Of a DNA stretch of 64,000 nucleotides, positions 1-60,144 are shown one piece after another. The DNA is from a virus. The notes beneath the pieces are model-generated. The model had not been told where the DNA came from and did not search any database. It saw only the letters and a program-made list of their open reading frames with translations. How positions within the stretch are numbered: the stretch's first letter is position 1; each line of letters starts with the position of its first letter. The stretch lies in the IMG/VR virus record IMGVR_UViG_3300006737_000020, positions 1-64,000 of that record. The stretch is one strand, 5' to 3'. The translations under genes and the position numbers were made by a program.

Positions 1-738
1 ATTTTGATTGGCAATACCTGTTATAACTGAATCATATCTTAATCCAACATATGCTTCATTCAACTCTAATGTATAATGTAATACTGTTTTGCCTTTCTTG
101 ACCGCATCTGCTCCGACATTCATTAATGCCCATGATTTACCAATTCCTGCAGGAGCAACCATTACACCAAGTTCACCTTTACCTAAACCACCATCTGTTA
201 GTTCATTTATAACTTCCCATGGAGTAGGTTGTACATCTCTAACTGCATCTGTATATCGTTCATCTATACTTGTCATATAATCATGTCCAATATCTTTATC
301 CGCTCCAGCTTTTAAAGCTTCATCAACTTTTGCTTTGATCCCATCATAGTCACCATTCTTTAATAATTCTACAGATCCTAAAATAGCTTTTTTAATTTCT
401 TGGTTTTTACAAAAATCCATTGCCTGATCTTTGATATATTCTAAATCAGGTGATTCTGTATATTTCCATGCATCCTTAAGATGTGCAACTACTTGTTCTT
501 TTAGTACATCATGGTCAACTTTTTCAAGTTTAACTTTCATCACTTCCAATGTAGGAGATGATTTATATTCTTTAAAGTATTCTAAAATTGTATCTATAAT
601 CCAGGCATTGGCATCAGATTCAAAATAACCTGAGACCATAATATCTGAAATTTGTTGTAGGAATGATTTATCTACTAGTAATGCTGTAATTACCTTTATC
701 TGAAATGCGTATCCGTACGAACTTAATCTATCTGTCAT
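1..738 (-). CDS. dnaB: Replicative DnaB/gp41-like helicase (runs off the left window edge)
   Basis: Not in the ORF track. Manual translation from ATG at 738 gives MTDRLSSYGYAFQIKVITALL...TPWEVINELTDGGLGKGELGVMVAPAGIGKSWAL...VLHYTLEL, with Walker A and SF4 helicase motifs; open to position 1. Confidence 0.93.
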   Translation of the reverse strand, partial: MTDRLSSYGYAFQIKVITALLVDKSFLQQISDIMVSGYFESDANAWIIDTILEYFKEYKSSPTLEVMKVKLEKVDHDVLKEQVVAHLKDAWKYTESPDLEYIKDQAMDFCKNQEIKKAILGSVELLKNGDYDGIKAKVDEALKAGADKDIGHDYMTSIDERYTDAVRDVQPTPWEVINELTDGGLGKGELGVMVAPAGIGKSWALMNVGADAVKKGKTVLHYTLELNEAYVGLRYDSVITGIANQN

Positions 739-741
739 ACT

Positions 742-773
742 TTAATATAATAATTTTTTTTCTAAAATCCTAA
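742..773 (-). promoter_or_regulatory. Class I (Bacteroidota-type -33/-7) promoter of the helicase gene
   Basis: Coding strand TTAG-N20-TATATTAA, ending 3 nt before the ATG. Confidence 0.7.
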
Positions 774-1840
774 TCTTTTCGCATTTGAATATACGCGTTA
801 AGAGTATTAAATGATGTTGCAAGCCAAGTATCTAAATCTTTAATGACTGTATACATTTTATCTTGCATAAACATCTTTTTAAATTGGAATGTATTTAACT
901 TATCTACTGTTCCTGTAACCTTATCATGTATCATCATCTTTATAGAACCGGCAATATCAACCTCTTTGAGTTGCATAAGAGAATGGTTCAAGTCAACCTG
1001 GTCCTCTGATTCTACTACGGACTTATAGATTTTGTAGCGACCTTCATCTGCTCCATCTTTTGCATGATTTATAATTTCATGTATTGGTACATGTCTATTT
1101 TCTGTAATCATTGGAAAAAATTTCTTCAATGATTTTAATGCAACTCCTTTAACTCCAGGAATATTATCTGACTTATCACCTAGGAATGTTCTATATAATA
1201 AATAATTTGAAGCGTTAATTCCAAATTCTTCTTGCATTAATCTTGGATTGTACATTTTCTTTTTGATTGGACTCCAAACAGATATCCTATCATTTACTAA
1301 TTGTAAAAAATCTCTATCTGTAGATACAATTTGTACTTTTTGATTTGGTTCTGTATATACTTCGTTTGCAATATATGCTATCGCATCATCAGCCTCAATA
1401 TTATCAACCGCTAACATTGTAATTGGTAAACAATTTAAATATTCAACTAATCTACCAAATTGTTTTTTCATGGAATCTGACTCATCTTCTTGTGTTGCAA
1501 ATTCTTTATATCTGTTAAATGCTGTTTTTACAGCTCTATTTGCTTTATAATCTGGATAAATCTTTTTTCTACGTTTAGATCCACCTTTACCATCAAAACA
1601 AACAATTACTCTTGTCGGCTTTAATAAACGAATATTTGCAGCTAATGATCTTAAAAATCCTGTAACACCACCAATATGATCTCCATCATCATTTAATGCA
1701 GGAACTGCGGAGAATACTCTAATAAAGGTATTAAGACCATCGAGTATTAATATCTTACTATTAATATCCGATGGTCTACCTTCTTGATGTTCCCTAACAA
1801 CATCTTGGAAAAACTTTTGAAGTTGCTTATGATTCTTCAT
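770..1840 (-). CDS. 5'-3' exonuclease / flap endonuclease (T4 RNase H-like)
   Basis: LILDGLN, FDGKGGS..RK.IYPDYKANR, EADDAI, STDRDFLQL and GDKSDNIPGV motifs. Confidence 0.93.
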   Translation of the reverse strand: MKNHKQLQKFFQDVVREHQEGRPSDINSKILILDGLNTFIRVFSAVPALNDDGDHIGGVTGFLRSLAANIRLLKPTRVIVCFDGKGGSKRRKKIYPDYKANRAVKTAFNRYKEFATQEDESDSMKKQFGRLVEYLNCLPITMLAVDNIEADDAIAYIANEVYTEPNQKVQIVSTDRDFLQLVNDRISVWSPIKKKMYNPRLMQEEFGINASNYLLYRTFLGDKSDNIPGVKGVALKSLKKFFPMITENRHVPIHEIINHAKDGADEGRYKIYKSVVESEDQVDLNHSLMQLKEVDIAGSIKMMIHDKVTGTVDKLNTFQFKKMFMQDKMYTVIKDLDTWLATSFNTLNAYIQMRKD

Positions 1841-2981
1841 TCACGAATTCTTCATCTATTTCAACATCATCTATTCCAATATTGTCACCAGGTTTGTATG
1901 TTAATATATACGCATTACAAATAGCATTGTATATCTCATCCTTCAATTCCGGATCAGCTTCAAGTTTACCTTGAAAGTCTTTTGATAAGAATTTTACATC
2001 TGTACCATCTGCTTTTGTATATGTATACCACGCACCTGCTGTACTCACCAATTTATGTTGTTTCATAACATTTAACCAGCCACCAAAATTATCTATTCCA
2101 CTTTCAAAGTAAATATCATAATCGATAGTCTTTAAAGGTGGACCCATTCTATTTTTAATAACTTGGCATCTAGTTTTGATACCAACAGTTTGATCAACGC
2201 CATCTTTTTTGACTTTGATTTGCCCTACTGATTTCAATCGTAACCGTACTGATGAGTGAAATGGAATTGCTTTTCCACCACTTGTTGTCCAAGGATCACC
2301 AAATGCTACACCTAGTCTTGAACGAAGCTGATTAGTAAACAATAAGGCAATTCGTTGTCTACCAATAAGATTTGTAATCTTACGCATACCTTTTGATAAT
2401 ATGATAGCTTTGGACGTTGCCCAACCATCTTTATCATAATCTGCTGCTTGCTCAATCTTTGTTGAAGCACCCATTACTGAATCAACGACAATTGTTACCA
2501 ATCGGTCTTTGTTAGATTTTCTAACTGATTCAATAATACTTTCAATTGCTTCAAAGATATCTTCAATAGCATCTAATGGAACATAGAGCATTTTTTCCAG
2601 GTCTAATCCAATTGCTTCGAGAAACTCTCTACTAACTGCATTTTCTGTATCAATATAAACGGCTAACCCACCTTGCTTTTGCGTATCTGCTAAAGCATGA
2701 GCTGCCAATAATGATTTACCTGAAGCTTCTAATCCTGTTATCTCAGTTATTCTGCCAACTGGAAAACCTCCATTTTGTCTATTTGAGATTGCTAAATCTA
2801 GCATAGAAGAGCCTGTACCTACCCAACCACCTACTTCACTAGGTGAATCTGTATCTCCGTCTAGGAAATATGCAACTTTATAGTTAGTATTTTTAAATTT
2901 CTTGTTAAGTCCTTCTCTAATACTTTCTCCTAAAGCTGTTGCTAGCTCGTCTGCTTGTTGTGCTTTACTTTTCTTTGCCAT
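1827..2981 (-). CDS. recA: RecA/UvsX recombinase
   Basis: GLEASGKS Walker A, YIDTENA, IVVDSV Walker B, FTNQLR, TSGGKAIPFHSSVRLRL, KNRMGPP. Confidence 0.95.
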   Translation of the reverse strand: MAKKSKAQQADELATALGESIREGLNKKFKNTNYKVAYFLDGDTDSPSEVGGWVGTGSSMLDLAISNRQNGGFPVGRITEITGLEASGKSLLAAHALADTQKQGGLAVYIDTENAVSREFLEAIGLDLEKMLYVPLDAIEDIFEAIESIIESVRKSNKDRLVTIVVDSVMGASTKIEQAADYDKDGWATSKAIILSKGMRKITNLIGRQRIALLFTNQLRSRLGVAFGDPWTTSGGKAIPFHSSVRLRLKSVGQIKVKKDGVDQTVGIKTRCQVIKNRMGPPLKTIDYDIYFESGIDNFGGWLNVMKQHKLVSTAGAWYTYTKADGTDVKFLSKDFQGKLEADPELKDEIYNAICNAYILTYKPGDNIGIDDVEIDEEFVNEES

Positions 2982-2996
2982 ATATAACCTTTAATT

Positions 2997-3779
2997 TTAT
3001 TCATTAAACAAATCATCAAATGCTGCTGAAACATCATCTACTTTGTTAACACCTTCTTTAACTGCATCTTCTTTCTTTGCTACTGGTTCTGCTGGTGTAG
3101 ATGCAGGATCTGTAGTTGCATCATCTCCATCTGGATTCAACCAATTTGCTAAAGCTTCTTTTAATTCATCATATGATGGCTCTTTAAAAATATCTTTAAG
3201 ATTAGGTTGATTCTTTGCACAAGCTTCTGCAACATTTTTGTCTTCAGTTAAAGCTGTAACATTAGGCTTTACTCTAATTGCTGTTTTAGGAAATTGTCCT
3301 GGACCTTCTGCTGGTGTAAATTCAACTAAGATATCTCTACCATTCATTGGATCTGTAATGTCACCATAATCTGGATCAGCTATTACTCCTAAAAGTTCTT
3401 GATAAACTAGTTTACCAAATCCCCAAAATTTAACACCTTCTGATTCTTTTCCTCTAACTAATACAGGAACATAAGTTCTCATTTTAGGTTCCATTTTCTT
3501 ACCTAATTTCCATTCGTCTGAATTACCAGAAGATTTTAATTTTTCAGAAAATTCAACAACTGGATCTGGTCTACCATGAGTTACTGGTGATAAAAAGTTT
3601 TTCTTACCTAAGTCATAGTGAAAGTACAATTCATTGAATGGATTGTCTTTGTTGTGCTGATAAGGTACGATTCTGATTATTTGTTTGCCTGGTTCAGGCT
3701 TCCATAAGTTTGACGTTCTATTATTCGTCGTTTGTAATTGATTAAGCTTTGCCTTAATCGCGTCTAAGTTAATTGCCAT
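2997..3779 (-). CDS. gp32: Single-stranded DNA-binding protein (T4 gp32-like)
   Basis: LWKPEPGKQIIRIVP, VKFWGFGK, DITDP..GRD, acidic C-tail (DDVSAAFDDLFNE); adjacent to UvsX. Confidence 0.85.
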   Translation of the reverse strand: MAINLDAIKAKLNQLQTTNNRTSNLWKPEPGKQIIRIVPYQHNKDNPFNELYFHYDLGKKNFLSPVTHGRPDPVVEFSEKLKSSGNSDEWKLGKKMEPKMRTYVPVLVRGKESEGVKFWGFGKLVYQELLGVIADPDYGDITDPMNGRDILVEFTPAEGPGQFPKTAIRVKPNVTALTEDKNVAEACAKNQPNLKDIFKEPSYDELKEALANWLNPDGDDATTDPASTPAEPVAKKEDAVKEGVNKVDDVSAAFDDLFNE

Positions 3780-3940: not shown

Positions 3941-3974
3941 TATAAATATAATGAAAATATTTCATATATCCTAA
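3941..3974 (-). promoter_or_regulatory. Composite class I/class II promoter upstream of SSB
   Basis: TTAG-N20-TATATTTA whose -7 box continues into the ATATTTATA motif (3941-3949). Confidence 0.6.
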
Positions 3975-3978
3975 TTTT

Positions 3979-4296
3979 TTATTCAAATTCTCCAAGTGCA
4001 TCTTGCATTGTAGTTATTAAAGCATTTTCTTCAGTACTTGAAAGCTTTGTACCATCTAAATATTTATCATATTCTTTTTCTAAACCTGTATCTTCAATAT
4101 ACTGATTTAATATTTCTAATGAATTTTCATCACTATAGTCGTAAATTGAATTATATACAGCTTGAACTTTTGGGTTTGCATTTTCTTTTATTAAAGTAGC
4201 ATCATTGCTTCTTGTTTTACCTTCAAACAATTGTTTGTATTTTTTACCTAAATTCATTTTTTTTTGTTCTTTTTTATAGTGTTCTGAATATCCCAT
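3979..4296 (-). CDS. Hypothetical protein, candidate internal head protein
   Basis: 105-aa ORF; MNLGKKYKQLFEG...LIKE resembles the N-terminus of 35176..35592. Confidence 0.6.
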   Translation of the reverse strand: MGYSEHYKKEQKKMNLGKKYKQLFEGKTRSNDATLIKENANPKVQAVYNSIYDYSDENSLEILNQYIEDTGLEKEYDKYLDGTKLSSTEENALITTMQDALGEFE

Positions 4297-4688
4297 TATA
4301 CATCAAATCTTTTATATAACTCTAATACTATTCTACGGTATCCTTCATTATTAGTTAAGAGTAAACTATTTTTATAATTTTCCCATGCAATAATAAATGT
4401 TTTATCTAGAACTCCATTATTAACTGTTTTAATAATTTCATTTAATGCATTAACTGTATACAATGTATTTGTATCTTTCTTTCTATGTATTAAAATTGTA
4501 TTAGGTGTTTTTTTGTAATCTTCTTTAGGATCTACATTGTATGTAACATAAACATCATTTGGCTTATCTGCATCATTAAACACAAAGATTTTTTTCTCTA
4601 CGATTGTGTAACTTTTTTTAACATAATCGACTATGAGATTTAAATCCTTTCTATGAGCGAATGTACATAATAAATTTGTTCTTGCCAA
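4296..4688 (-). CDS. Hypothetical phage protein
   Basis: 130-aa ORF with TTG start, preceded by the class II motif at 4715-4723. Confidence 0.7.
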   Translation of the reverse strand: MARTNLLCTFAHRKDLNLIVDYVKKSYTIVEKKIFVFNDADKPNDVYVTYNVDPKEDYKKTPNTILIHRKKDTNTLYTVNALNEIIKTVNNGVLDKTFIIAWENYKNSLLLTNNEGYRRIVLELYKRFDV

Positions 4689-4751
4689 AATCTTCTTCCT
4701 GTTTATTATTCTATTATAAATATCAACTTTTATACTGAAACCTATAGTCTC

Positions 4752-5942
4752 TTAACCAAATATTGTTTTTAGATTACCTTTAATAGATCCTCCTGAAACA
4801 TTTAATGCATCTGCAGATTCTGAATCTATGGCAGTAATATCTATTTTATGAAAATGTACATCTGCTTTTCCTGGAATTACATTTGCAATATATCCCATTT
4901 GTCCTGGTTTGCTACCATATTTATTTGCTGCAAGCATTTGTAATACTTGTACTGCAAGTTCATCAGGTGTTGATGATTTAGATAATCTATTAACATTTAT
5001 CTCTACTTTTGACTTTCGACCTGAAGCTTCAAAAGATTTTTCCATATCATCAAATACTGAATTGGCATTCTTTATCATATCTGTAAATATACTATCTGAT
5101 CCGAATATTTCTTCTAATTTTTCTAATCCTGGTAAATTTAGAAAAGTAAATAAAGAAGTTCCTGCTTCTACTATATGTTTTTTACCAAATGTTATTTCTG
5201 TTATTGGATTAGCCACAGACCCCTCCTTAAAAGCTTTTGTTAATGCATGTATTCCAAATATATTTTGCACAATTCTTCTTTCTAGTTTCATGTCTGACCA
5301 CCTACCTAATCCAGTAATTCTAGAATGACTAGGATATGATTTTACTTCAACAGCCTTTTTGTCTATTCTTAAATCGGGTGCACCTGAGCCTTCTTGAGTA
5401 GTATCTTCTGCTCTATTTGCCGAACCTTGTTGGAAATTAAACAACCAATACAATGCAATCTCACCTTTACCTATAATTGCTAGATTATTATTTTCTGCCC
5501 ATAATTCCTCAAATATTTCAATATCTTCTTTTTGCCATGCACCTACTAATGGTCCTGAATCGTTTGGTACACTATATTTACCTTTTACCATTGGAATTAC
5601 TTGAACTTGTAATCTTCTTTTGATTGCCTCATCATAATCAGTTGATGTTCCTGTACGTTCTTTTTCCTCTGATTGAGTAGTATCAACATCTAGTTCATCT
5701 TTGCCTGGTATAAATTGATCGTCTGCTGGTGCTTCTTTTACAGGCTTTGCATCATTAAATGCTTGGTCTAATTGAAAATCATCTTCTGTTAATGATTTGA
5801 TAATAGGTATTGCATTTATTCCTTGTTCTATTAACACTTCTTTTAAAACATGGAGCTCGTCTTGGTTATATGGTTTTATCGCATAACCATTAGGTAGTCT
5901 GTAAAACCACTCTGTTAATATGTCATTTACGTTTCTTTGCAT
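4752..5942 (-). CDS. PD-(D/E)xK nuclease-fold protein with N-terminal leader
   Basis: GKGEIAL...PDLRIDKKAVEVKSY matches the E...PD...ExK pattern. Confidence 0.6.
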   Translation of the reverse strand: MQRNVNDILTEWFYRLPNGYAIKPYNQDELHVLKEVLIEQGINAIPIIKSLTEDDFQLDQAFNDAKPVKEAPADDQFIPGKDELDVDTTQSEEKERTGTSTDYDEAIKRRLQVQVIPMVKGKYSVPNDSGPLVGAWQKEDIEIFEELWAENNNLAIIGKGEIALYWLFNFQQGSANRAEDTTQEGSGAPDLRIDKKAVEVKSYPSHSRITGLGRWSDMKLERRIVQNIFGIHALTKAFKEGSVANPITEITFGKKHIVEAGTSLFTFLNLPGLEKLEEIFGSDSIFTDMIKNANSVFDDMEKSFEASGRKSKVEINVNRLSKSSTPDELAVQVLQMLAANKYGSKPGQMGYIANVIPGKADVHFHKIDITAIDSESADALNVSGGSIKGNLKTIFG

Positions 5943-5959
5943 TTATTATAAATATGTAG

Positions 5960-7306
5960 TTAAACTACTTTCTCGGTCATATTTATCATGTCATGCATAG
6001 ATTTACCTGCTTTAATTTTAACTGGAAATTTATTATTTGTCATAGTATTCTTTAATTTAATAATTAGGTCTCTTCCGTCTTTAATATTAAAATCAAATAG
6101 CAATGAATCATATGTATATAAAATTAGTTTAGTATCATATGGTCCTAACAATGCATTTACTTCATTCATTACAGCCATATTATATTCAGTTTCCATACTT
6201 TGTAAATAATAATTAAATAATTTACTTGGGTTCATATCAGACATTGCAGTTTTAAATAACTTTCTTTTTAATATAGCTGTTTCCATATATCCTTTAGATT
6301 GGAATTCTTTCCACAATTTATAAGTAAAATCTTTTACTTTACCAAAGAATGTAATTTTTGCAAAATCTTTATCAACACCTCCATATAATAATCGGAATGA
6401 TATTTGTTTACTTTGTTCATATTCTTCTTCTGATAATTTATCTTTTCCAAAATATTGTTTACCTAAATATGTATGAACATTTTCTTTTCCAAAATCATAA
6501 TCTATAATATCTCCAATTAATCGTAAATGGTAAGAGTCATAGTCTAACTCTAATAACATACCATATTCATGTCTTGATATAAATGATTTTCTAGATCCAT
6601 CTATTTTATTTATGGCAGCATAATTTACACCACCATGTTTATTTGAAGGACGTCCTGTGGTTGTATAAATATTATATTCTGTATATGCCGTTTTTCCAAC
6701 TAAATTATTTGTTTGGAATTTTTCTACAAATTTATCATAATTAACTTTTAATCCATTTCTTTCAATTGCATATAAGTTATCTATAAATAATTCGTTATAA
6801 TAATCAAATCCATCTGTACGCTTAAATGTAGAATATGATTGTATAAATTTATTTTTCATTGCAGAACATCTTTCATAATGTTTAACTATAGGAACATAAT
6901 CATGCACATTGGTTTCATTATAGTACCATTTATTATACCAATCATGAGCATTTGTATCACAATCTTCTAATTGTAACATTTGATTTGATTGAAAATATTC
7001 AACTAAATCTGCATCATAGGTCTTATGATGGTAGAAATTTACAAAGCGTTTCTTCCCCAAAACATATATATCAGCCTTACTTGTAAGCCTGTTTAGATGT
7101 TCGGATTCTAGGCATATACAATCCTTATGACGGAATGGTACAATATATTCTTTTTTAGTATCCATAACATATATATAAACAAAACTTATTTCATTATTCA
7201 CATAATGTTTATATAAATCAGAAAATACTGGTATCCACAAACTATTAGATGTCTGTAATGCTTGATGTAGCTCTTGTAACCTTTTTTTGTCTTCTACAAT
7301 TTTCAT
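5960..7306 (-). CDS. Divergent family A DNA polymerase-like protein
   Basis: TTTGRPS, motif A LDYDSYHLR, motif B SKQISFRLLYG, NYYLQS, motif C YTYDSLLFD. Confidence 0.85.
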   Translation of the reverse strand: MKIVEDKKRLQELHQALQTSNSLWIPVFSDLYKHYVNNEISFVYIYVMDTKKEYIVPFRHKDCICLESEHLNRLTSKADIYVLGKKRFVNFYHHKTYDADLVEYFQSNQMLQLEDCDTNAHDWYNKWYYNETNVHDYVPIVKHYERCSAMKNKFIQSYSTFKRTDGFDYYNELFIDNLYAIERNGLKVNYDKFVEKFQTNNLVGKTAYTEYNIYTTTGRPSNKHGGVNYAAINKIDGSRKSFISRHEYGMLLELDYDSYHLRLIGDIIDYDFGKENVHTYLGKQYFGKDKLSEEEYEQSKQISFRLLYGGVDKDFAKITFFGKVKDFTYKLWKEFQSKGYMETAILKRKLFKTAMSDMNPSKLFNYYLQSMETEYNMAVMNEVNALLGPYDTKLILYTYDSLLFDFNIKDGRDLIIKLKNTMTNNKFPVKIKAGKSMHDMINMTEKVV

Positions 7307-25988: not shown

Positions 25989-28900
25989 CTATTCTGCTAT
26001 TTCTGCTGTTACTGTATATGTACCTTTTAAATTTTTACCACTACCAAATGTATTTGATACACTTGAGAATACAATTATTCTATCACCTGCTACTGCTCCT
26101 ACATCTGGATTAAATCCACCATGGCCTCCTGCAGCACTTCCTGTAATATAAATTGTATGGAATTGGTTTCCAACAGTTGCAGATGAACCACTACATATAA
26201 ATACTGGATTAGTAGTATTTGATCCTGCTGTTTGAATAGCAAGCATTTTATATACATAATATGATAATGTACCTTGAGCTGTAGAATCTGTTGGTTTTAA
26301 TGTTCCTATCAATTTAATGTTTTTAATATTTTGTGTTACTGCTACACCTAAATTTGAATCTCCATTTGAATTCCAAGTTCCAGTTTCTACAGATGCTTTT
26401 GTTAATTCTTGATTCCATGATCTATCAGACCAACCATATGTACTCGATCCTGCTTGGAAGTTAGCTAATGTTCCAGCTGGTTCATTAAAATACCAACTAT
26501 GTGCTATAATATGAATTGGCATACCTACAAATTTGTTTGCAGTAATTGTTCCTGACGCGCTTATATCTCCTGTTACATTAAGCTTTCGTTCACTTCCATC
26601 AAATATTGCCCAGCTGGTTGATCCTTCATGAATTTGAACATCCGAATCTGGATACAATCTTATAGTTCTATCTGCATAAATATCTAAATCTTCTGGATTA
26701 CCTGATGTTTCTATTTTTGTATTTGTATCTCCATCCCATATGATATCACCTCCAGATGGTAAATGTATTTGACTTGCATGTATATTACCACTCGCGGTTA
26801 TACCACCTGATGCAGATATGTGACCGTCTACAACTAAATTAGTATTGGCTGATGTATGTATTCCTGTTGCTAAAGCATGTATAAATCCATAAGAATTACC
26901 ACTTGGATATATCCTACCTGAGGCAGAACCATAAAAAGATCCTCCTAGTGTTAAACTATTATCTGTTGTTATACTTCCTGTTATGGTTATTCCATCTGCA
27001 AAGTTAGTATTACCTATTGAAACTGATTCATTTCCAACTATACCACTTTCAGGTCCTAATATGAAATGTCTTGAAATACCAGTTGCATCTTTTAATCTAT
27101 AAGCAGTATCAGCATAATACCCAGCTGCATATATATTACCACTTGAAGTTATTCCAGCCGATGCTGTTATACGATTTGCTTCAACAAAACCAGAAACTTC
27201 TAATCCAGAAGCTGCTGCAGATTTTCCAGTTAACACATGAAATGAACCTGTATTGGCCAATACAGATGCATCTGATTTTATATTACCAGAAGCAGTTATA
27301 TGAGTATCAAATTCTGCATTACCGCCAACGTGTAACATGCTTGTATTGCTTGCTCTTCTTCCAATACCTATCAATGCATTGGCATTGCCAATTCCTGCTG
27401 AACTTTGAGATACTATTAAATATTCTTGTGTTGTTGGATTACCAGCATTTGGTGTAAGTACAATATCTCCTTGCTGTGATGTAACAGTTCCTAAAAGGCC
27501 GCCTCCATGAAAGGTATTATCTGCATAAAAGAATACGCCTCCATTTGCAGTTGCAATTGTATTGAGTGTACGATCAGAAAATAAAGTTCCTGCTTTAATA
27601 GTAGTTCCAGTTATTACATCTCCTTTAATATTACCTGAAGCTGTTATATGTCCTTGCGCATTAATATGATTTGCAACATATAAACCAGATGAATGACTTC
27701 CATTTATTCTAGGTGTAGTTAGTGCACCTGTTGTGATAACATTAGCTGCAGTACTATTACCACTTGAACTTATATCACCTGAGGCTGTTATATTTCCAAG
27801 TGCATCCATAATTAAACCTTCACCTGAACCTGATGAAAATATTTTTACACCTTGACCTAAATAAGAATCATGATTTGCACCTAATATTAAAGCATTACTA
27901 TTTACATTTATAGTTGGTTTAACAGATGATAATGCATCTATAAAATAACCATGTGAAGGACTTCTTCCAAGCACTTTAAAATTAGTTGCTATAATATCAC
28001 TACTTGCACTTATATAACCTGATGCTGTAATGTTGCCATTTTCAATCATCACAGAATCATTAGACCCAATTTTCTGAGTTAGAGTTTGACCATTTGTGGC
28101 TCCTATAGTAGCGGTAGTATATGCAGCTATAACTTGACCACTTGAACTTATATTACCTGAGGCTGTTATATGACCTTTAAATGTATGAGTATCATCATCT
28201 GTATCTCCAAATATATTTGAACCTGATGTTTGTAATATTGATGATGAAACTATTGAAGATGTTATACTAGTTACATTTAAACTTGTTGCTTCTATTGATC
28301 CAACTGAAATGTCTGGTGTTCCTGATAACCCTGTTGCATCTCCAATGAACCCTTTACTCGCGCTTATGACTGATGCTGTTATGTCTCCTTCGAATCGATG
28401 TTGATGAAATGTACCAGATTGACCATATTGCATTTGTGAGAATGATCCTGCAGAATTAAAAATTAAACCTGAGATTTGGCCTTCTGCTAGAGGTACAGAT
28501 TGTGTACCTAAATCTATATGATATTTATCTGCATATATATTTCCACTTGCACTTATATTACCTGATGCTGTTATGGCATGTTCTACATATAAACTTTTAG
28601 CATCCAACTCTCCTGTGAAGACTTTTGACTTACCAGTAGTTGCATCTCCAAATGTTGCATTTCCTGCCGATGTCATTTTCAATGTACCTAATCTACTAGC
28701 ACCATCTTTAAATTCAATTGTTTGTCCAGAAGTTATAATATGATCAAATGAACCTGTTCCTAATGAACCTGCAGAAACATCTCCACTTGAACTTATATTA
28801 CCTGATGCAGTTATATGGCCATCTCCAATATAAACATCAGATCCAACTACTCTTAATCTTCCGTATATAGTATGTTCATTCCTATCTCCATTGGTTCCCA

Positions 28901-30191
28901 TTGTAAGAGTTCCGCTCGAACTTATATCTCCAGAGCCTGTTATATTGCCACTTACACGAAGACCCATATTATTTACTACACTAGTATTATCAAATGTTAA
29001 TCTTGCTGAAGCATTATGTGGTCCAATATATACTCTATTTGCTAAAACATGGTCACCGAGAATATTACTACTTGAACTTATTGCACCTGAGGCTGTTACG
29101 TTACCATATAACATAACTGGCTTGGGAGCATTTGATCTATTAATCTGTGTTGCTGCAAAAGCGCCTTGCTCATTAATTCCTAACGTCGTACCCGTATCAT
29201 CTAGTGCTTCTTTATTATTAAGGTAAAGCTTAGCACCTAAATATACATCTCCGCTTGCACTTATATCACTTGAGGCTGTTACTGGTCCTGAGAGTGATAT
29301 GTTAACTGCACCACCACTACCTATTACTAGACCATTTCCAAGTACAAGAGTCTGGCTGTCAGCTGCACCAAACACTTGTGTTCCATATAAATCCCATATA
29401 ACATTGTTGCCTTTCATTTGATATGTAGCTGCTTGTACAACACTTGCACTTATATATCCTGAAGCTGTTATGTGGGTTGTTTCTAAACTTCCTTCTATTA
29501 AAACTTGACCTGGAAGTTTTATTTTATTTGATTCAAATAATAATACATCTGTATTACCTATAGAATATCCTGCATCTGAAAATACACCTGTTGTTGTAAT
29601 GGGACCACTTGCACTTATTGCTCCTGAGGCTGTTATTTGGCCACTACCAGAAACATGTATGTTTCCATTTACAGTTAATTTTTGATCTGGATTATTTGTA
29701 CCTATACCTAATTGACGTTTTTCAGCATCTCCCCATAATATTACGCTGTCAACAGAACCAGAACCAAATACTTTAAAGTTTACATCTTGATATTCATTAT
29801 TCAAATCGATCCAGGAAGCGCCTATAGATAATTTATTTTTACCGGCTGTTTCTACTAGAAATTGATTTGTACCAAAATTTATAAATGTATCTGTATCATT
29901 TTTATGTATTATTTTTCCTGGTAATGTTAGATCACCGTCTATCGTAGAGTCCCCTGTCCTTAAGCCTGTTACTTTAAATGTATCTAATACTGTAGAATCG
30001 ATATATGAAGCTGTTTCTGCAAAAGATGAAGAAGTTTCATAATTTACTTCAGTGATTGCATATGATGCAGTCATTTGTAATGTCGGAACTAATGATCCAG
30101 TTCCATCAAATACTACTCCATCGTCACCGACAGTTAATACTCGTTGGTAAGTATCTTGAATATTTTGGCCTGTTAAGTCTGGTAAAGCCAT
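25989..30191 (-). CDS. Long fibre-like virion protein with ITASGNISxSG repeats
   Basis: 1400 aa, Gly/Ser/Thr-rich, GIGTNNP motif, more than a dozen TASG-x-IS-x-S units. Confidence 0.75.
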   Translation of the reverse strand: MALPDLTGQNIQDTYQRVLTVGDDGVVFDGTGSLVPTLQMTASYAITEVNYETSSSFAETASYIDSTVLDTFKVTGLRTGDSTIDGDLTLPGKIIHKNDTDTFINFGTNQFLVETAGKNKLSIGASWIDLNNEYQDVNFKVFGSGSVDSVILWGDAEKRQLGIGTNNPDQKLTVNGNIHVSGSGQITASGAISASGPITTTGVFSDAGYSIGNTDVLLFESNKIKLPGQVLIEGSLETTHITASGYISASVVQAATYQMKGNNVIWDLYGTQVFGAADSQTLVLGNGLVIGSGGAVNISLSGPVTASSDISASGDVYLGAKLYLNNKEALDDTGTTLGINEQGAFAATQINRSNAPKPVMLYGNVTASGAISSSSNILGDHVLANRVYIGPHNASARLTFDNTSVVNNMGLRVSGNITGSGDISSSGTLTMGTNGDRNEHTIYGRLRVVGSDVYIGDGHITASGNISSSGDVSAGSLGTGSFDHIITSGQTIEFKDGASRLGTLKMTSAGNATFGDATTGKSKVFTGELDAKSLYVEHAITASGNISASGNIYADKYHIDLGTQSVPLAEGQISGLIFNSAGSFSQMQYGQSGTFHQHRFEGDITASVISASKGFIGDATGLSGTPDISVGSIEATSLNVTSITSSIVSSSILQTSGSNIFGDTDDDTHTFKGHITASGNISSSGQVIAAYTTATIGATNGQTLTQKIGSNDSVMIENGNITASGYISASSDIIATNFKVLGRSPSHGYFIDALSSVKPTINVNSNALILGANHDSYLGQGVKIFSSGSGEGLIMDALGNITASGDISSSGNSTAANVITTGALTTPRINGSHSSGLYVANHINAQGHITASGNIKGDVITGTTIKAGTLFSDRTLNTIATANGGVFFYADNTFHGGGLLGTVTSQQGDIVLTPNAGNPTTQEYLIVSQSSAGIGNANALIGIGRRASNTSMLHVGGNAEFDTHITASGNIKSDASVLANTGSFHVLTGKSAAASGLEVSGFVEANRITASAGITSSGNIYAAGYYADTAYRLKDATGISRHFILGPESGIVGNESVSIGNTNFADGITITGSITTDNSLTLGGSFYGSASGRIYPSGNSYGFIHALATGIHTSANTNLVVDGHISASGGITASGNIHASQIHLPSGGDIIWDGDTNTKIETSGNPEDLDIYADRTIRLYPDSDVQIHEGSTSWAIFDGSERKLNVTGDISASGTITANKFVGMPIHIIAHSWYFNEPAGTLANFQAGSSTYGWSDRSWNQELTKASVETGTWNSNGDSNLGVAVTQNIKNIKLIGTLKPTDSTAQGTLSYYVYKMLAIQTAGSNTTNPVFICSGSSATVGNQFHTIYITGSAAGGHGGFNPDVGAVAGDRIIVFSSVSNTFGSGKNLKGTYTVTAEIAE
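26545..29640 (-). repeat. Dispersed ~30-bp coding repeats
   Basis: Plus-strand variants of cacttg(a/c)acttatattacctga(g/t)gctgttat near 27761, 28002, 28139, 28543, 28783, 29070, 29253, 29441, 29605 and elsewhere. Confidence 0.85.
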
Positions 30192-47084: not shown

Positions 47085-50000
47085 CTAATCTCGTAAAGCG
47101 TTCATTTGTTGCATTGATGTACTAATACCATCATCAAATCCAGTTATAGCTACTATAACATCTATTAATATTTGCGATTCAACTTCGGTGCCATCATCAA
47201 CTAAATCAAATCCTTTTATTAATCCTGGGTCATGATCTAAAATCATATGCATAACTCTATCTCCTCCTTGTGATCCATCAAATACTAAATTAACTCCACC
47301 TGTAACAGCCCTTGTATAATCAGACACGTTACCATTTGTCACTGTCACAACTTTGGTTGCAAAATTGGTTGCTACTGCAGAACCTGATAACAACATGCTT
47401 GATGCAGTTATTTGTCCATTTGCTTTCAAGAATGTTTGTCCTCCATCTCCTGAATTACTTGTAAGTTGTGTGCTATCAAATTGCCATCCTGCTATTTGAT
47501 TGTCATCTGAACCTGCTGTTTCTCCTAGATGGAATATTGTCCCGCCGGCTCCATTACTTGTTTTTCCTTCAATACCCCATGTATCAACATCATGGTCTTG
47601 ATACATTCTAACATAGTTGGAAGTACCTACTCCCGTTCCATCAGATGAAATTCTAATTTCTGTTTGTCCTGAATCTGCAGAACTTTGTCCCATCCATATC
47701 ATTCCGCCTGCAGAGTCATACTTTATATAATTATTTGCAATCAACCAACCACCTATTTCACCTGCTGATGATGTGATAGCTCCACCTTTATCAACTTTGA
47801 AATTACCAGTATCTATTATATAATGGCCTGCAGAATTAATAGTTAAGTTTGTTGCGGCCAAATCAAATGTTTCTGCTTTCATTGTTAATGCAGTTCCATC
47901 TTTCTTAAGATAATTATTTGCATCTCCATATGCAAGGAAGTCACCAGTACCATCCATGTATATACCAGCATTTGTTCCTGCCACAGATGTGTTTGGAGTT
48001 GAACCTAATGCAATCTTACCTGAATTGGTTCCACTATCTAATATCATAGTTGATGTTGCAAGATCAAATGTATTAGCTTTAATTTCAACTGATGTACCAG
48101 ATGCATCAAATTTTACAAAGTTAGTTGAATTACCATATGCAAGGAAACTACCATCTCCGTCCATATAAATACCTTTATTGGTTCCGGCTACAGATGCATT
48201 TGGTGTAACACCTAATGTTAAAATACCACTACCACTCAAGATGGCATTACCACCTTTTATTTTATCAGTTGATATTGTCCAACCACCTACAGTTCCATCA
48301 TGAATAGATGGTTCTTTGTATGCATATACTCGATCAACAATTAATGGATCTCCAGCTGCTATATCAGTCCAATTTAAAACAATTAATGAAGCCCATTTAG
48401 CTGTGCTAGTTGGTCTATATATAAATTCATAATCTGTAAATGAAGTTGCAACAGGTCCATTTTCAACACTTGTTCCAGCTATTCTTTCAAATTGGAATGA
48501 ACCACTTGAATTTTGAGTTCCTTGCGTCACTTGCCTTGTAGCTTCTTGTACGCCAGCTTCTGAGATACTAGCATTATAAGATACATGAGTATCTCCAGAA
48601 TCTAACTCAGAATCATATTCTTGCATTCTAATATAAAGTCCGGATGAATCAACTACTTCTCCTCGAAGCCTTACTTGTACTCGATATTCAGATCCAACTG
48701 ATACATGAAAGGCTGGCCAGCCAGCGCCAATATGGGCATCACTATCATTAACAATTACTAGTTGTTGACTTGCTGCTAAACTTCCAGAAAAACTAATATT
48801 GGTTGCGGTTGCACCACCATACACGGCTTTTACTCCGGCTGGTCTTCCATCAGGCGCAGCTAATTCAAAATTAGGATTATAAATTAAAGAACTTCCTTGA
48901 GTGGTTGAACCTGTCTGATTCAATGTATTGGCTTCTGTTAAATCTGAAGTTCCAATAGTTACTGTTCCTGCAAATCCTGCATTACCTGTTGCTGTATCAA
49001 CATAGAATTGTTTTGTATGAATTCCATCTGCACCAATGGTTATATCTGCATTGTTTGCGGCAAATCCAGAAGTGTCTTTTGTTCCAGAATATATTGCATC
49101 TTCTTCAATTGTAAAGCCTGCTATTAATCCACCAGATGCTGATATTCCTCCTGATACAATTAAATCTGTTCCGTCAAATTCTAATGATGGATTTGTATCT
49201 CCACCCATTTTAAATGTGCCATCATTAAGATTAAACTCAGATCCTACTTGGCCACCATCGGTCCAATTATTAGATTGCACTTTACCAGTTTTAACCATAT
49301 CACCAGTTATTTTGGTAATACCTTGTTGATATGATTCTTGGTCTAAATCTTTCTTAAGTAGGAAGTCTAAACAACGTTCCAATGGTGTTTCTTTAATATA
49401 ATTATATCTTGTAGTTGATATAATTATTCTACCTCCTCTTGGATTAGTACCATAAAATGCTAAATAGGCTGCAGTTGTATTTGTAGCTATATTACCAGTA
49501 TCTGATATTGTAGGTATCGAACCAGATATTGCAATTGGTGCATATGTAGAACCTCCTCCATCTGAATAAACTGTTATTGGAATATTACCTGTATCAGCAG
49601 GAGCCGAATCTGACCATACCGACCAACCTTGACCGATTGGATCTGTTTCTTGCAATCCAGATCCTGTTGCTATATGACCGTTTTCATATGGATTTGATGC
49701 AACACCACTAGTATGCTGTTTAATAGGATAATCAGTACCACCTGATCCGGTTACATCTGCACCTGCCATATTATTCGCTTGTACAAATACAGACTGTCCT
49801 TCATCAAATAGATTCATAACCATCTGTTCTTTTTCTACATTCCATACTTCACCTGAAAATACATATAAATCATATCCTTGATCGTAACCTAAAATATCCG
49901 AAGGCGTAGTTGAACCTGTAGTTGTATTTTCAAAGTAATTTGTATATCCTAATGAACTTGAAATAACTCTACTACCTGGTGTAGGATCTGCTGAAGCTGA

Positions 50001-53000
50001 TTCTATTAATGCAATTCTATAATCTGCCTTTGTTTTATTTGGCATATAAAATGATTCAGAATTTTGTACTTGAATATTTCCTATTATTTGTAATGATGCA
50101 TCAGCTGCGCTCCACATCAATGAACCAGTACTATCTCCTCCTAAATAGAAGTTACCAGCACTATCCATATAAGTTGCAAAACCACCATTATAATATCCCA
50201 TGTATTGAGATGTTAAATTTAATCCTTCAGCTGCTGTATTTGTTGTCAATGTGAATCCATCTCCTCCAAATGCATAATTGGATGGATTATGTAATGATGT
50301 AGTAGCTGCGTTAGTTGTATAAGGTCCTAACATTGAACTGGTTGCTGTTTCTTCTATGAATCCTCCAATCAATAATGTAGTACCGTCCCAAGATAATTTT
50401 GGATTGCTAGAACCTCCTAACTTGAATGTTCCATTATCTAAACTAAATTCAGAACCAACTGATGGGCCCCAATTATTTGATCTTAAATGTCCTGATGTTA
50501 TAGAATCTCCTTCAATGATTGTTCTACCAACACCTGCATTAGGACTTAAATATAATGCTTGAACTTCTTCATCAGTTAATGAACCAGTATAAATTCTAAA
50601 GTCATCTATTTCACCTTTAAAATTATATGCATATTGTGCTCCTTGGTATCCTCCGATGTTAAGATCTGCTCCTACAGCTGGTCCCATTGTTGGATTTCTA
50701 TATTTTGCCCAACCTTTCCATTGACCATTAATATATAAACTTGCAGTCAATGTTAATGTATCATTTACAACAGCAAAGTGAGTCCATAATCCATCATATT
50801 CTTGCCAAGTAACATCTGGTCCTCCTGGATATTCTTGGAAAGGATTATTGTCACCATCACCTGTATTCCATAATATTTTAGTGCCATTAAACCAAAGATC
50901 TAATTGAGCATTATTACCAGCACCACCAACACCAGCTACTAATGCTCCTCCTCCGTGAGGATTTGTAAATGAAGTATCTGCATCAACTGAAAATGACATT
51001 TGAGAAGTATCTGATTTGTCTATCTTTAGCCAATGTGCAAATGTATGGTTATCATATAATTGTATTGGATTCAATGTTAACTTACCAGTTTTATCAGTTA
51101 CACCTGGAAATACTGCAGAACCACCTATTTTGGCACTTGAAGAATTGCATGTAACGGCCGTACCGGCGTCTATCTGAATGGTTCCATTTTCATGTTGTCT
51201 AAATCCTGACACATCTTGTAATAAACTACTTGAACCAAAAGATCCAGTTGATATAAATCCATCAAATGGTAAATGTAAAATTAATCCTTCACTTGGAGGA
51301 GCGGTTGGTAATGAACTTACTTCAATCTTTCCTTTGAAATATCCATTGGTTGTATAAATACCATGACCAGTTACTCCATCACTAAATGAACTATCTGTTA
51401 TTCCTGATAAATCTCCTACTTGTGCTGCAAGATTCAAATCATATAATCCTGAACCTGTTCTTTCTACAATTTGCATATATGGTGTAAATGGGTCATTTGG
51501 ATTGGCATTTAATCTAATATATCCAGTATTAATTTTACCTGTTGATACAATTACCTGAGAACCTGTATATGATTGTGCAGCAAATGGAGAATCTCCTAAT
51601 GAACCTGATGGTCCATGAGTAGGAGAACCATCATAACTTATACTCCTAGTTACAAATAAGAAGCCACCAAAGTCAGTATCGCTTGATGCATCAAATCTAG
51701 AAGCTGATTGAACTCTTACGTACTCTGTAGTAAATCCAGTTGATGATACTTTTTTAAGTGATAATATTTCTCCATATGTAAATCCAGATACATTTGCAAT
51801 TGACATTGTTGTATCTGTTGCATCATGAAAGGCTCCTGGATGTAATGCTGATCCTGTTAACACTGATGAGTTTGCAACATATAATTGTCCACCAACCGCA
51901 TTAACTGTTTCTTTTTCAAATACTGCAGTAGATAATGTTCCTCTTATTCTTGCATTCTCTACTTCTAGGAATCCTCCTGACACCGCAGTTAATCTAAATC
52001 CTGAACCTGCTAAGTTTGAAACAAATCCATCTGATTCAATAGTTCCTTCTTTTCTGATGATCATATTACCACCAGTTAATTTTTCATTATCAAATGCCCA
52101 ACCAGCAATTTGATTATCTTCTTCTCCTGATTCTACATTGGCTCCTAAAGCAAATAATATATTGCCTCCAGATTTGCCCATCAATCCCCAATTATCACTT
52201 GCAGCAAAATGTGTTCTTACAAAATCATCTGCAGATTTTCTAACAAGTAATTCAGGAGTAGCTCCTCCTTCAAGGAATGCATTTGATGATGATAACATAT
52301 CACCGTTTATATTCCAACCTGCAATATCTCCTCCATCAAATAATACCTGTGATCCAGTTATTCTACCATCAGATCTTAATATCAAGTCTTCATTTAATGA
52401 TTTAATTACATCTGTTTGTACTTCAAATCCACCAATACTTGCAGATACAAATTTGGCTAAACCTTGAGATGTAATAGATGCAGATGCATTTGATAATGTT
52501 GATGGCGATCCTCCAATTGAAGCAGGAGTTTGAATATTATCAGCTGTAATTGTTCCTTGTACTGTTAATGTACTTCCTAAAAATTGTAAGAAGTTACCAG
52601 CTGCTTTATCACCTAATAATATATCAGAACCTGTAATTGTTCCATCAGCTGATACTTTAAATGCTGAAGAAGATATAAATGATACTGGATCTGCTGTATC
52701 TAATGATGCTGATATTCTCCATCTATTAGATCTATATAAAGAACCACTTATAAAATTAATTCCAGCTATTTGATTTTCTGATCCTAATTCAAATATTTTT
52801 TCTGTTCCTACTGTTCCTAATAGTCCCCAATCAGTTGCACTATTATAAAACATATTTACTGTATTATTTGTATCAGATTGTACTTTTACAAACGGTGTAT
52901 TATCTCCTTGCAATACAATATAATCACTTGTAGATTTTAAATTTGTTCCATCTATTGTCCATCCAGCTACCACTCCTCCATCAAATTGTACATCAGATCC

Positions 53001-59000: not shown

Positions 59001-59224
59001 AATAAATCTGCTAAATTAGAAAAGAATTCAGATGTTAAATCAATTAACTCTGGTGACATATCTGTTTTTGCGTGTACAATATCTCCAGCAATATAAATAA
59101 TATCATTTTCTTGTTTTGTCTTTTTTATATAAGAATATAATCGTTTAAATACTTGTCTATATTCTTTATGACGTTTAACATTTCTTATATGTACATCTGC
59201 TATGTGATATATTCTATTTATCAT
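56093..59224 (-). CDS. Fused Mre11/SbcD nuclease and Rad50/SbcC ATPase (gp47-gp46-like)
   Basis: HIADVH, IAGD, GNHD, LGDIH; APNASGKS, CSYC hook, SGMEK, LAIDEGF. Start at 59224 inferred from the ATGA overlap with the primase stop. Confidence 0.93.
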   Translation of the reverse strand: MINRIYHIADVHIRNVKRHKEYRQVFKRLYSYIKKTKQENDIIYIAGDIVHAKTDMSPELIDLTSEFFSNLADLLPTIVILGNHDCNLNNNYRLDALSPIVKAINHKNLHYLKDNDVYDIQGVHFNVMAVDEKPAKYIKASDFEGNFKIALHHGSVHNASTDAGFTLSNTHVTTDMFIGHDLVLLGDIHKPQYLDDKKTIAYAGSLIQQNHGESLGHGIMIWDLKTKKSEFVEIENDYGYYTYEIDNGKIINPDSRVPKKPRLRLKVKDTDSGTLKQIIADIRSKYKVQDISIQKINALNTTDSKNKINFGNVRDVEWQNNVITEYLTDEFALDDELLDTVRHINRTVHSKLPTNTLTRNITWQPKKFEFSNMFSYGEDNEIDFSNMNGTYGLFAPNASGKSTLLDALAFTCFDRCSRTKKAAHVLNNKKSRFHCKFEFELGKYIYFIERTGKKNNRGHVKVDVNFWRVDKDGNEESLNGDQRDSTNKSIRQYLGSYEDFVLTALSLQNNNTGFIDKTQRERKDLLSQFLDIDIFEQQYLVGHEDIRETAALIREYKRKDFSTDLSTAREIISQYTGSYEQMKVDKTEHEEMKTNLNDIIFSLTKELKKVDDTLDSPDDIKYEITQLSDRIGNLKLDREHQKDLIKSQQKLIKEITQKINKIDEQSLKDALVELKDYNDTVIKLNNDLKLKQLKIQHAQKMVSKLDKHEWDEDCSYCMANPWLKETQQVADLLPKLIDEEQVLEFDIKHHEDGIAKIEHEDKPKEKLKVLADLKHSLGINNGTLIAYKHELEKCKWDIESINNDIRDKKKQLTKSQKQKDNIEFNKTKNSEISEIREEITTVSSELGQLHTKLLSLSGKLKMAEKSRQDAIDGINRLKSLEQQYQGYEYYQKAVQRNGVPYHLITRALPQIEAEINNILNQIVEFTIILHTDGKNINAFIVYDDDNYWPLELTSGMEKFISSLAIRTSLINVSNLPRPNFLAIDEGFGVLDSDNLNSMYMLFDYLKSQFGFIMCISHIDAMRDIVDKLIEIKKTNGYSNISYN

Positions 59225-60144
59225 ATTCCCATTATCCTTTGCTCTATTAGCCAACTAGAAGTAAGTTTTTCTGTTCCAGCTAATATGTTATTAATTTTTC
59301 CAAAACCTACTTCACTTGGATCTTTTTCTTTTAAGTCTACAAAATATACATCTACTCCATTTGCCATAAAATATTCAGCCGTTTCAATAGCTTGTTTTCT
59401 TGCATCCTGGTCAAGACATATATAAATTATTTTTACATTATTTTCTATAATACGATGTTTAAGTTGATCTGGTATTGTTTTACCAAATAATGGAATTGCA
59501 TTCCTTCTTATTGCAATTGCATCAAAAGCTCCTTCAACTAAACATACTGGATAATTCCAGTTAATATGTAACTCAAATCCTACAATATCTTTTGATACCT
59601 GTGGATTTTTATGTTTAAAATTATCATCTTCATAGTAAGCTCTTCCAACAAAGTAATTTAATACTCCATTTGCATCATAACTAGGAATAATAACCTTTCC
59701 TGAATATTGTCCAGTTTCGCAATATCCTATTCTATATTTAAGAATATCATGAATAGTAATACCTCGTTTTTTAAGATAATAAACCGCATTTCTATATTCT
59801 GGTGATAATGTGTTTATTTTCCATAATGGCTTGAACTCGGGTGGTAATTCTACTGCCTTTGTATTTGTAGTAGTTATTTTAGGTCTATATTCTGTTTCTT
59901 CAATATATTCAAATAATTTAGATATTTTAAATCGTTCAACTTTTAACTTTTTAAATAATGTAATTATTTTACGGCCTGCCGCATTACATACCCAGCAATG
60001 CCAGTGTTGAGAAAGGATGTTAACTTCTAACTTCTTTTTGTTATGATGGCAAAAAGGACAGTGAAAAGCTACATTGCCTTTATTAGTAGATCTACCCTTT
60101 CCAAGTACAGATTCTATTAATGTTAGTAATTTAAAATTCGTCAT
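59221..60144 (-). CDS. dnaG: DNA primase (DnaG/gp61-like)
   Basis: CPFC...HCWVC zinc finger; TOPRIM LVEGAFD, CLDQDA, KDP. Confidence 0.9.
   Translation of the reverse strand: MTNFKLLTLIESVLGKGRSTNKGNVAFHCPFCHHNKKKLEVNILSQHWHCWVCNAAGRKIITLFKKLKVERFKISKLFEYIEETEYRPKITTTNTKAVELPPEFKPLWKINTLSPEYRNAVYYLKKRGITIHDILKYRIGYCETGQYSGKVIIPSYDANGVLNYFVGRAYYEDDNFKHKNPQVSKDIVGFELHINWNYPVCLVEGAFDAIAIRRNAIPLFGKTIPDQLKHRIIENNVKIIYICLDQDARKQAIETAEYFMANGVDVYFVDLKEKDPSEVGFGKINNILAGTEKLTSSWLIEQRIMGI

Follow-up and report, generated by a model that had tools for sequence, protein, structure and literature searches.

The divPolA1 proteins are divergent family A DNA polymerases (PolAs). They were defined in 14 phages, among them Flavobacterium phage immuto, with genomes of 155-190 kb ("DNA polymerase swapping in Caudoviricetes bacteriophages", Virol J 2024;21:200; PMC11348598; preprint 10.1101/2024.04.26.591309). 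They possess conserved palm residues, a truncated thumb, and an inactivated 3'-5' exonuclease in which all three catalytic Asp residues are replaced, and conserved replication genes lie downstream of them, while the same genomes carry a "regular" polymerase that belongs to family A, B, or C; the regular polymerases have diverse gene neighbourhoods and are exchanged among the three families, in contrast to the conserved replication context of divPolA1 (PMC11348598). In the present study, a 448-amino-acid (aa) protein encoded by a marine metagenomic virus was assigned to this already published family on the basis of its sequence. The stretch of DNA that was analysed (the window) comprises bases 1-64000 of the IMG/VR record IMGVR_UViG_3300006737_000020, a 103-kb contig with an estimated completeness of 58%. 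The protein is proposed to be an active, non-proofreading, distributive DNA polymerase that would perform short-patch synthesis beside a family B polymerase (PolB), a proposal to which a probability of about 0.5 is given. A large group of ~160-kb aquatic myoviruses has divPolA1 as its constant "second" polymerase.

The open reading frame (ORF) of the window matches Pfam DNA_pol_A (PF00476) over aa 206-432 with 46.9 bits (E=2.4e-12), above the curated cut-off of 34.3 bits. The best cultured match of its product is gp001 of phage immuto, annotated as "DNA polymerase family A" (34% identity, 88% query coverage, E=3e-68 in tblastn), the records of which (MW353175-7 / NC_055915) carry the accessions named as divPolA1 in the published study (PMC11348598). 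A word-indexed search retrieved 4,006 homologue clusters at 90% identity, nearly all of 440-450 aa and mainly from marine metagenomes, including Tara. An exhaustive HMMER search gave 1,101 clusters when grouped at 50% identity (587 fell below 1e-30), and the full-length members among the best 150 of these clusters are ~420-470 aa long; the family thus extends from the 14 published phages (PMC11348598) to more than 1,000 clusters at 50% identity. Because the Pfam score exceeds the cut-off, more than 4,000 homologue clusters exist, and the ratio of nonsynonymous to synonymous substitution rates (dN/dS) against the closest DNA relative is ~0.13, the ORF is regarded as a real gene under selection and not as a chance reading frame. 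Homology, similar length, loss of the thumb and the exonuclease, the palm residues, and the downstream replication genes are shared with immuto and the published divPolA1 proteins; a regular polymerase beside divPolA1 is seen here in relatives of the window. In contrast to immuto, which carries a full 777-aa PolA, gp199, beside divPolA1, these relatives pair divPolA1 with PolB.

Searches of the Protein Data Bank (PDB) with the single 448-aa sequence gave nothing meaningful, and E. coli Klenow was reached by profile search only. An AlphaFold2 model was compared with known structures; it was built from an alignment of 63 family members (31-92% identity), which also underlies the residue counts given below, and it has a predicted local distance difference test score (pLDDT) of 95.1 and a predicted template modelling score (pTM) of 0.91. 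In Foldseek against the PDB, the matches listed were family A DNA polymerases only (Pol nu, Klenow, Pol theta, Bst, Taq, and the apicoplast polymerase; E ~1e-18, template modelling score up to 0.78). In VIA-align, 411-419 residues were aligned with Pol I large fragments at Z 27-28, residues 301-876 of Bst being aligned with model residues 1-441. According to the model, divPolA1 is a miniature "large fragment" that consists of an N-terminal exonuclease-like domain, the palm, and the fingers. As in Klenow, Bst, and KlenTaq, the fold has two domains (Z ~28) and motifs A, B, C, 2, and 6 can be identified, and a vestigial exonuclease domain is common to Bst, Taq, and divPolA1. On the other hand, ~90 thumb residues of Pol I are absent, four active-site residues are replaced (E710, R754, H881, and E883 by His, Tyr, Tyr, and Ser), and the 5' nuclease is not fused to the polymerase, a flap endonuclease (FEN) being encoded by a separate gene, four genes downstream.

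The missing residues are those of the thumb. The IERNG motif lies at aa 181-185 and TTTGRPS at aa 215-221, and the residues between the ERNG Gly and the TGR Thr number 31 in the window protein versus 121 in E. coli Pol I. Each of the 63 aligned homologues has a spacing of 26-35, and the range across 231 family proteins is 17-36. The profile alignment with Klenow falls into two blocks (profile 165-206 with chain 198-239, and profile 197-434 with chain 314-587), leaving ~75 Klenow residues (chain 240-313) without a counterpart. These comparisons indicate a family-wide loss of ~90 thumb residues. The initial annotation had described a PolA of 448 aa without a thumb, and this description is borne out by the open frame and by the stub, in place of an intact thumb, seen in both the model and the Klenow alignment; the short gap between the two motifs was likewise found, with 29 aa counted instead of "about 25". 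Deletion of the thumb tip in Klenow reduces DNA affinity and processivity. In the 2023 Nucleic Acids Research reclassification of PolAs, the portion consulted describes "broken thumb" clusters only, and no thumb-less cluster was seen there (PMC10201439).

The exonuclease-like domain has no conserved catalytic site. Within aa 1-200, acidic residues are conserved at 90% or more at position 62 (Asp or Glu), D98, and E182 only, and the last of these lies in the ERNG motif, which is part of the polymerase domain. Since just two acidic positions are left within the domain at this level of conservation, the DEDD tetrad, that is, the four Exo I-III carboxylates of the DEDDy proofreading site, is judged to be absent, in line with the earlier remark that no clear DxE exonuclease motif is visible. 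D98, in the segment YDADLVEYF, probably corresponds to the non-catalytic Asp of the Pol I segment FDTMLESYI by our own reading, and D30 (acidic in 70% of homologues) and E145 (78%) vary too much to belong to a catalytic site. Loss of both the thumb and proofreading would make DNA-templated synthesis by divPolA1 distributive and error-prone.

In the polymerase active site, residue equivalences were taken from the profile-profile alignment with Klenow, and the altered motifs A (DYDSYHLR), B, and C (TYDSL) noted in the initial annotation all align with their Klenow positions. The two catalytic Asp residues, which it had described as retained, are D255 (D705 in Klenow) and D400 (D882), both present in 63/63 homologues. 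The steric-gate Glu (E710) is replaced by H260, a His in every homologue, and H881 by Y399, which is also invariant. R754 corresponds to Y296 (Tyr in 57 of the 63, Arg in 3), and E883 to S401 (Ser in 53, Ala in 9). Position 257, equivalent to S707, is acidic in 57/63 (Asp in 36, Glu in 21). Among the residues that are kept, K300 (K758) and Y308 (Y766) occur in all homologues, F304 (F762) in 62, and H278 (H734) and N365 (N845) in at least 90%; R219 (R668) and Q369 (Q849) are invariant, so that the full invariant set comprises R219, R239, D255, H260, K300, Y308, Y366, Q369, E372, Y399, and D400. The canonical Pol I set of E710, R754, H881, and E883 is thus replaced family-wide, and the odd residues are family hallmarks under purifying selection. 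In Pol I, K758 and H734 contact the triphosphate, and R668, N845, and Q849 read the minor groove. Because both metal-binding Asp residues, the triphosphate contacts, and the minor-groove readers are all kept, the pattern is consistent with a functional polymerase that depends on primer-template and has a retuned nucleotide pocket, and not with a decayed one.

The protein could alternatively be a non-catalytic scaffold, a pseudo-enzyme that only organises the single-stranded DNA-binding protein (SSB), RecA, FEN, and the helicase, and the replacement of R754, H881, and E883, which are important in Klenow, together with the loss of the thumb could be read in this way. The metal-binding Asp residues and the equivalents of K758, Y766, H734, R668, N845, and Q849 are, however, invariant or nearly so in more than 60 diverse sequences, and the replacements are themselves invariant, which suggests retuning and not decay. 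The scaffold role that had been offered among the possibilities in the initial annotation is weakened by the presence of D255, D400, K300, and Y308 in 63/63 homologues, and it is regarded as extremely unlikely.

The same replacements could point to an altered sugar or primer specificity, by which divPolA1 would use ribonucleoside triphosphates, or would extend RNA primers before handing off to PolB, in analogy to Pol alpha or Bacillus subtilis DnaE. The universal change of the steric-gate Glu to His is in keeping with such a role, as is the constancy of divPolA1 while the main polymerase swaps families (PMC11348598). Motif C, with the pattern Y-D-S-[F/I/L] and the loss of E883, resembles the H-D-S-F of T7 RNA polymerase, since both share D-S followed by a hydrophobic residue and lack a Glu after the catalytic Asp. 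By our reasoning, the steric gate need nevertheless not be lost, because His is about as bulky as Glu, whereas the corresponding residue of T7 RNA polymerase is Gly. In contrast to that enzyme (~880 aa), divPolA1 possesses neither the promoter-binding N-terminal domain nor the specificity loop nor a thumb, and its N-terminal domain is exonuclease-like. Of the two enzymes named in the initial annotation for structural comparison, Klenow is matched in fold, and no RNA polymerase was among the matches listed by Foldseek or VIA-align. A role in transcription is weakened in our assessment, as the whole length of 448 aa adopts a Klenow-like fold, the exonuclease domain of which is vestigial, and the top structural matches are DNA polymerases. 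A role in priming, which had also been suggested, is weakened by a DnaG-type primase that is encoded in the window and likewise in the complete relatives, so that de novo priming is covered. An altered specificity is held to be distinctly unlikely. divPolA2 of barbaviruses is similar to divPolA1 in being a second divergent PolA without a canonical thumb beside a regular PolB, but differs in its unrelated N-terminal globular domain, variable neighbourhood, and structural similarity to RNA polymerases (PMC11348598). Such a domain and a variable neighbourhood do not apply to divPolA1, and RNA polymerases are not among the structural matches listed for it.

A polymerase without a conserved exonuclease site, in which the truncated thumb would reduce the grip on DNA, might otherwise serve in lesion bypass, copying ultraviolet-damaged or otherwise damaged templates in surface-water phages in the manner of the translesion polymerases Pol nu and Pol theta. 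Human Pol nu is the top Foldseek match and Pol theta structures rank high, although the family A polymerases are almost level in this ranking and VIA-align puts Pol I large fragments first. The replacement of R754 in the O-helix, the abundance of the family in marine metagenomes, and the proximity of the divPolA1 gene to RecA and SSB are also compatible with bypass synthesis, and divPolA1 resembles both enzymes in having a family A fold without proofreading and a plausibly non-replicative role. In contrast, Pol nu and Pol theta possess a full thumb, the steric-gate Glu, and characteristic lineage-specific insertions, all of which are absent from divPolA1, and divPolA1 has no helicase fusion. 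No damage-inducible context is evident around the gene, and a translesion role is considered possible but unlikely.

The genomic setting is in favour of a division of work between two polymerases. All genes of the window lie on the minus strand, and divPolA1 is followed downstream by a 396-aa ORF, a 130-aa ORF (h130), a 105-aa ORF, a gp32-like SSB, RecA, FEN, and the start of a DnaB-like helicase (Table 1). Across 81 related IMG/VR loci, the recurring order is tail genes, divPolA1, h130, SSB, RecA, FEN, and DnaB. A PolB of 827-851 aa is encoded 15-23 kb downstream of divPolA1 in all five long relatives, two of which are complete with terminal repeats; each has one PolB, and neither a DnaE/PolC-type polymerase nor a second PolA was found in the five. 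The PolB of the closest long relative, the one that was examined, carries DNA_pol_B_exo1 (E=3.9e-24). The record of the window itself contains no PolB and has divPolA1 as its sole PolA, and the region that holds PolB in the relatives lies past the contig end. These results agree with the view of the initial annotation that the protein is probably not the main replicase, and the search for a separate PolB or PolC, which it had named as a check, points the same way in the long relatives.

We infer catalytic activity with low processivity and a short-patch role for divPolA1, which is encoded at the head of the SSB-RecA-FEN-DnaB module. It may fill gaps after primer removal together with the stand-alone FEN, which would amount to a split Pol I, and/or extend 3' ends in recombination and repair intermediates, while bulk copying of the genome would be left to the separately encoded PolB. 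Several points weigh against this proposal. R754, H881, and E883 matter for catalysis in Klenow, and with their equivalents replaced the activity of divPolA1 could be weak or altered. The contig stops 6 kb downstream of divPolA1, so that PolB is known from relatives only. The conserved context of divPolA1 could mean a more central role than that of the regular polymerase. Finally, the sequence data fit short-patch synthesis, lesion bypass, and primer extension alike.

The most constant downstream companion of divPolA1 is h130, which is found in 73/81 related loci (33-94% identity) and directly follows divPolA1 in the most compact loci (L023, and immuto, where it is gp002). Its AlphaFold2 model (pLDDT 94.6) is an alpha/beta protein. 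Fold searches of the PDB gave no clear match (Foldseek E >0.1; VIA-align Z up to 6.1, with generic ferredoxin-like folds over the N-terminal half only), the Atlas gave no lead, and no longer or fused forms of h130 were found. h130 is a candidate accessory factor. The possibility that it supplies the thumb in trans was rejected, as its alpha/beta fold is unlike the helical thumb. In contrast, the 396-aa ORF that separates h130 from divPolA1 in the window occurs in just 13/81 related loci and behaves like a variable, mobile-like insert outside the core module.

With such a companion, divPolA1 might itself be the true replicative core, with h130, a clamp, or a separate exonuclease acting in trans to provide processivity and possibly proofreading, in analogy to thioredoxin with T7 gp5. 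Its conserved place at the head of the replication module and the nearly universal small companion gene are what such a core would lead one to expect, and the regular polymerases are swapped and have variable contexts (PMC11348598). A full-length PolB is nevertheless present in every long relative, with an exonuclease domain in the one examined, and h130 is unlike a thumb in fold and was found in no fused form (weak evidence). A ~160-kb genome copied without proofreading would acquire too many errors. This arrangement is judged distinctly improbable. A further, doubtful possibility is that divPolA1, perhaps with h130 as an obligate subunit, is a dedicated primer-extension or hand-off polymerase, the sugar selectivity of which would be retuned by the His gate, the Tyr in place of R754, and the D-S of motif C.

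Table 1. Positions of divPolA1, its parts, and the other features in the window, in ascending order.
Feature	Position	Strand	Remarks
DnaB-like helicase, N-terminal part	1..738	(-)	cut by the contig end; 43% identity to immuto "replicative DNA helicase DnaB"; weak AAA_25 match
Stand-alone 5'-3' exonuclease / flap endonuclease (FEN)	770..1840	(-)	Pfam 5_3_exonuc_N E=2e-35, 5_3_exonuc E=2.2e-7
RecA-family recombinase	1827..2981	(-)	Pfam RecA E=2.1e-52
gp32-like single-stranded DNA-binding protein	2997..3779	(-)	Pfam gp32 E=2.6e-13; PHROG 1192
h130, 130-aa protein	4296..4688	(-)	no Pfam or PHROG family
396-aa ORF between divPolA1 and h130	4752..5942	(-)	no Pfam or PHROG family
divPolA1 gene	5960..7306	(-)	448 aa, open frame; stop codon 5960-5962
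Motif C, YTYDSL	6101..6118	(-)	TYDSL at aa 398-402; Y399 for H881, catalytic D400, S401 for E883
Motif B (O-helix), YEQSKQISFRLLYG	6380..6421	(-)	aa 296-309; Y296 replaces R754; K300, F304, Y308 kept
Motif A, DYDSYHLR	6521..6544	(-)	aa 255-262; catalytic D255; H260 at steric-gate E710; D257 at S707
Thumb stub	6665..6751	(-)	aa 186-214; consists in the model of a short strand, an 8-residue helix, and a loop; replaces the ~120-aa Pol I thumb segment
Vestigial 3'-5' exonuclease-like domain	6827..7306	(-)	aa 1-160; superposes on the Pol I exonuclease-like domain (domain level, model)
Very large ORF, virion-gene region	25989-30191	(-)	1,400 aa
Very large ORF, virion-gene region	47085-56042	(-)	2,985 aa
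Very large ORF, virion-gene region	56093-59254	(-)	1,053 aa
DnaG-type primase	59221..60144	(-)	307 aa; Zn_ribbon_DnaG, DNAG_N, Toprim_2

The primase gene lies far from the SSB-RecA-FEN-DnaB block, amid the large ORFs of the structural region. PHROGs gave no match for the polymerase or its neighbours, with the exception of the SSB. The 9-mer ATATTTATA occurs at 18 sites in the window versus 6.4 expected, a number reached in 0/100 shuffles, and 17 of the copies are on the coding strand (e.g., 5947-5955, 4715-4723, and 3941-3949). Several of them lie just upstream of start codons, such as the one 5 nucleotides before the 396-aa ORF. The divPolA1 gene is not preceded by ATATTTATA, and its 36 upstream nucleotides hold a TATAAT-like box near the ATG. 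In the closest long relative (L088, G005:20001-32000), PolB is flanked by GTP cyclohydrolase I (FolE), a radical SAM protein, and a ribonucleotide reductase fragment. Phage immuto replaces all G in its DNA (bioRxiv 10.1101/2023.04.13.536721), and a link between divPolA1 and 7-deazaguanine DNA was considered in view of immuto and the FolE and radical SAM genes beside PolB in this relative; it was rejected, as neither the TGT family nor immuto DpdA was found in five relatives, two of them complete.

Among deposited phages, matches to divPolA1 were obtained in immuto, Mel-JY01, a 484-kb uncultured phage, and one fragmentary "Bacteriophage sp." record, and the remaining ones are weak matches (~25% identity over aa 201-345) to PolAs of Twort-like Staphylococcus phages. 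If the latter are akin to the SPO1-like "broken thumb" PolAs, as described in the part of the reclassification consulted (PMC10201439), they could hint at the origin of the divPolA1 lineage. The sole longer relative found is P0270, a 935-aa protein on a single 6-kb contig with a C-terminal divPolA1 domain (35% identity) that keeps the His gate and YDS, preceded by a ~485-aa N-terminal extension that matches no Pfam family; either a rare fusion or an artefact of gene calling may explain it. With this one singleton, longer forms were rejected as a recurrent architecture of the family.

The basic observation is already in the literature, and its remaining value is biochemical, not the discovery of a new kind of enzyme. 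What is added here beyond the published study (PMC11348598) is the size of the family, the hallmark residues under selection, the recurring gene order, the PolB in relatives, and the primase of the window. divPolA1, one of the most widespread polymerases of aquatic viromes still to be characterised, departs from several rules of family A in having no thumb, steric-gate Glu, R754, or E883; a possible yield of its study is a compact polymerase with unusual substrate tolerance. If the doubtful primer-extension or hand-off role were true, abundant marine phages would possess a two-polymerase replisome like Pol alpha/Pol delta or DnaE/PolC, which would account for the constancy of divPolA1 against a main polymerase that swaps among families A, B, and C. 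Knowledge of the function of divPolA1 would clarify how work is divided between two polymerases in large phages.

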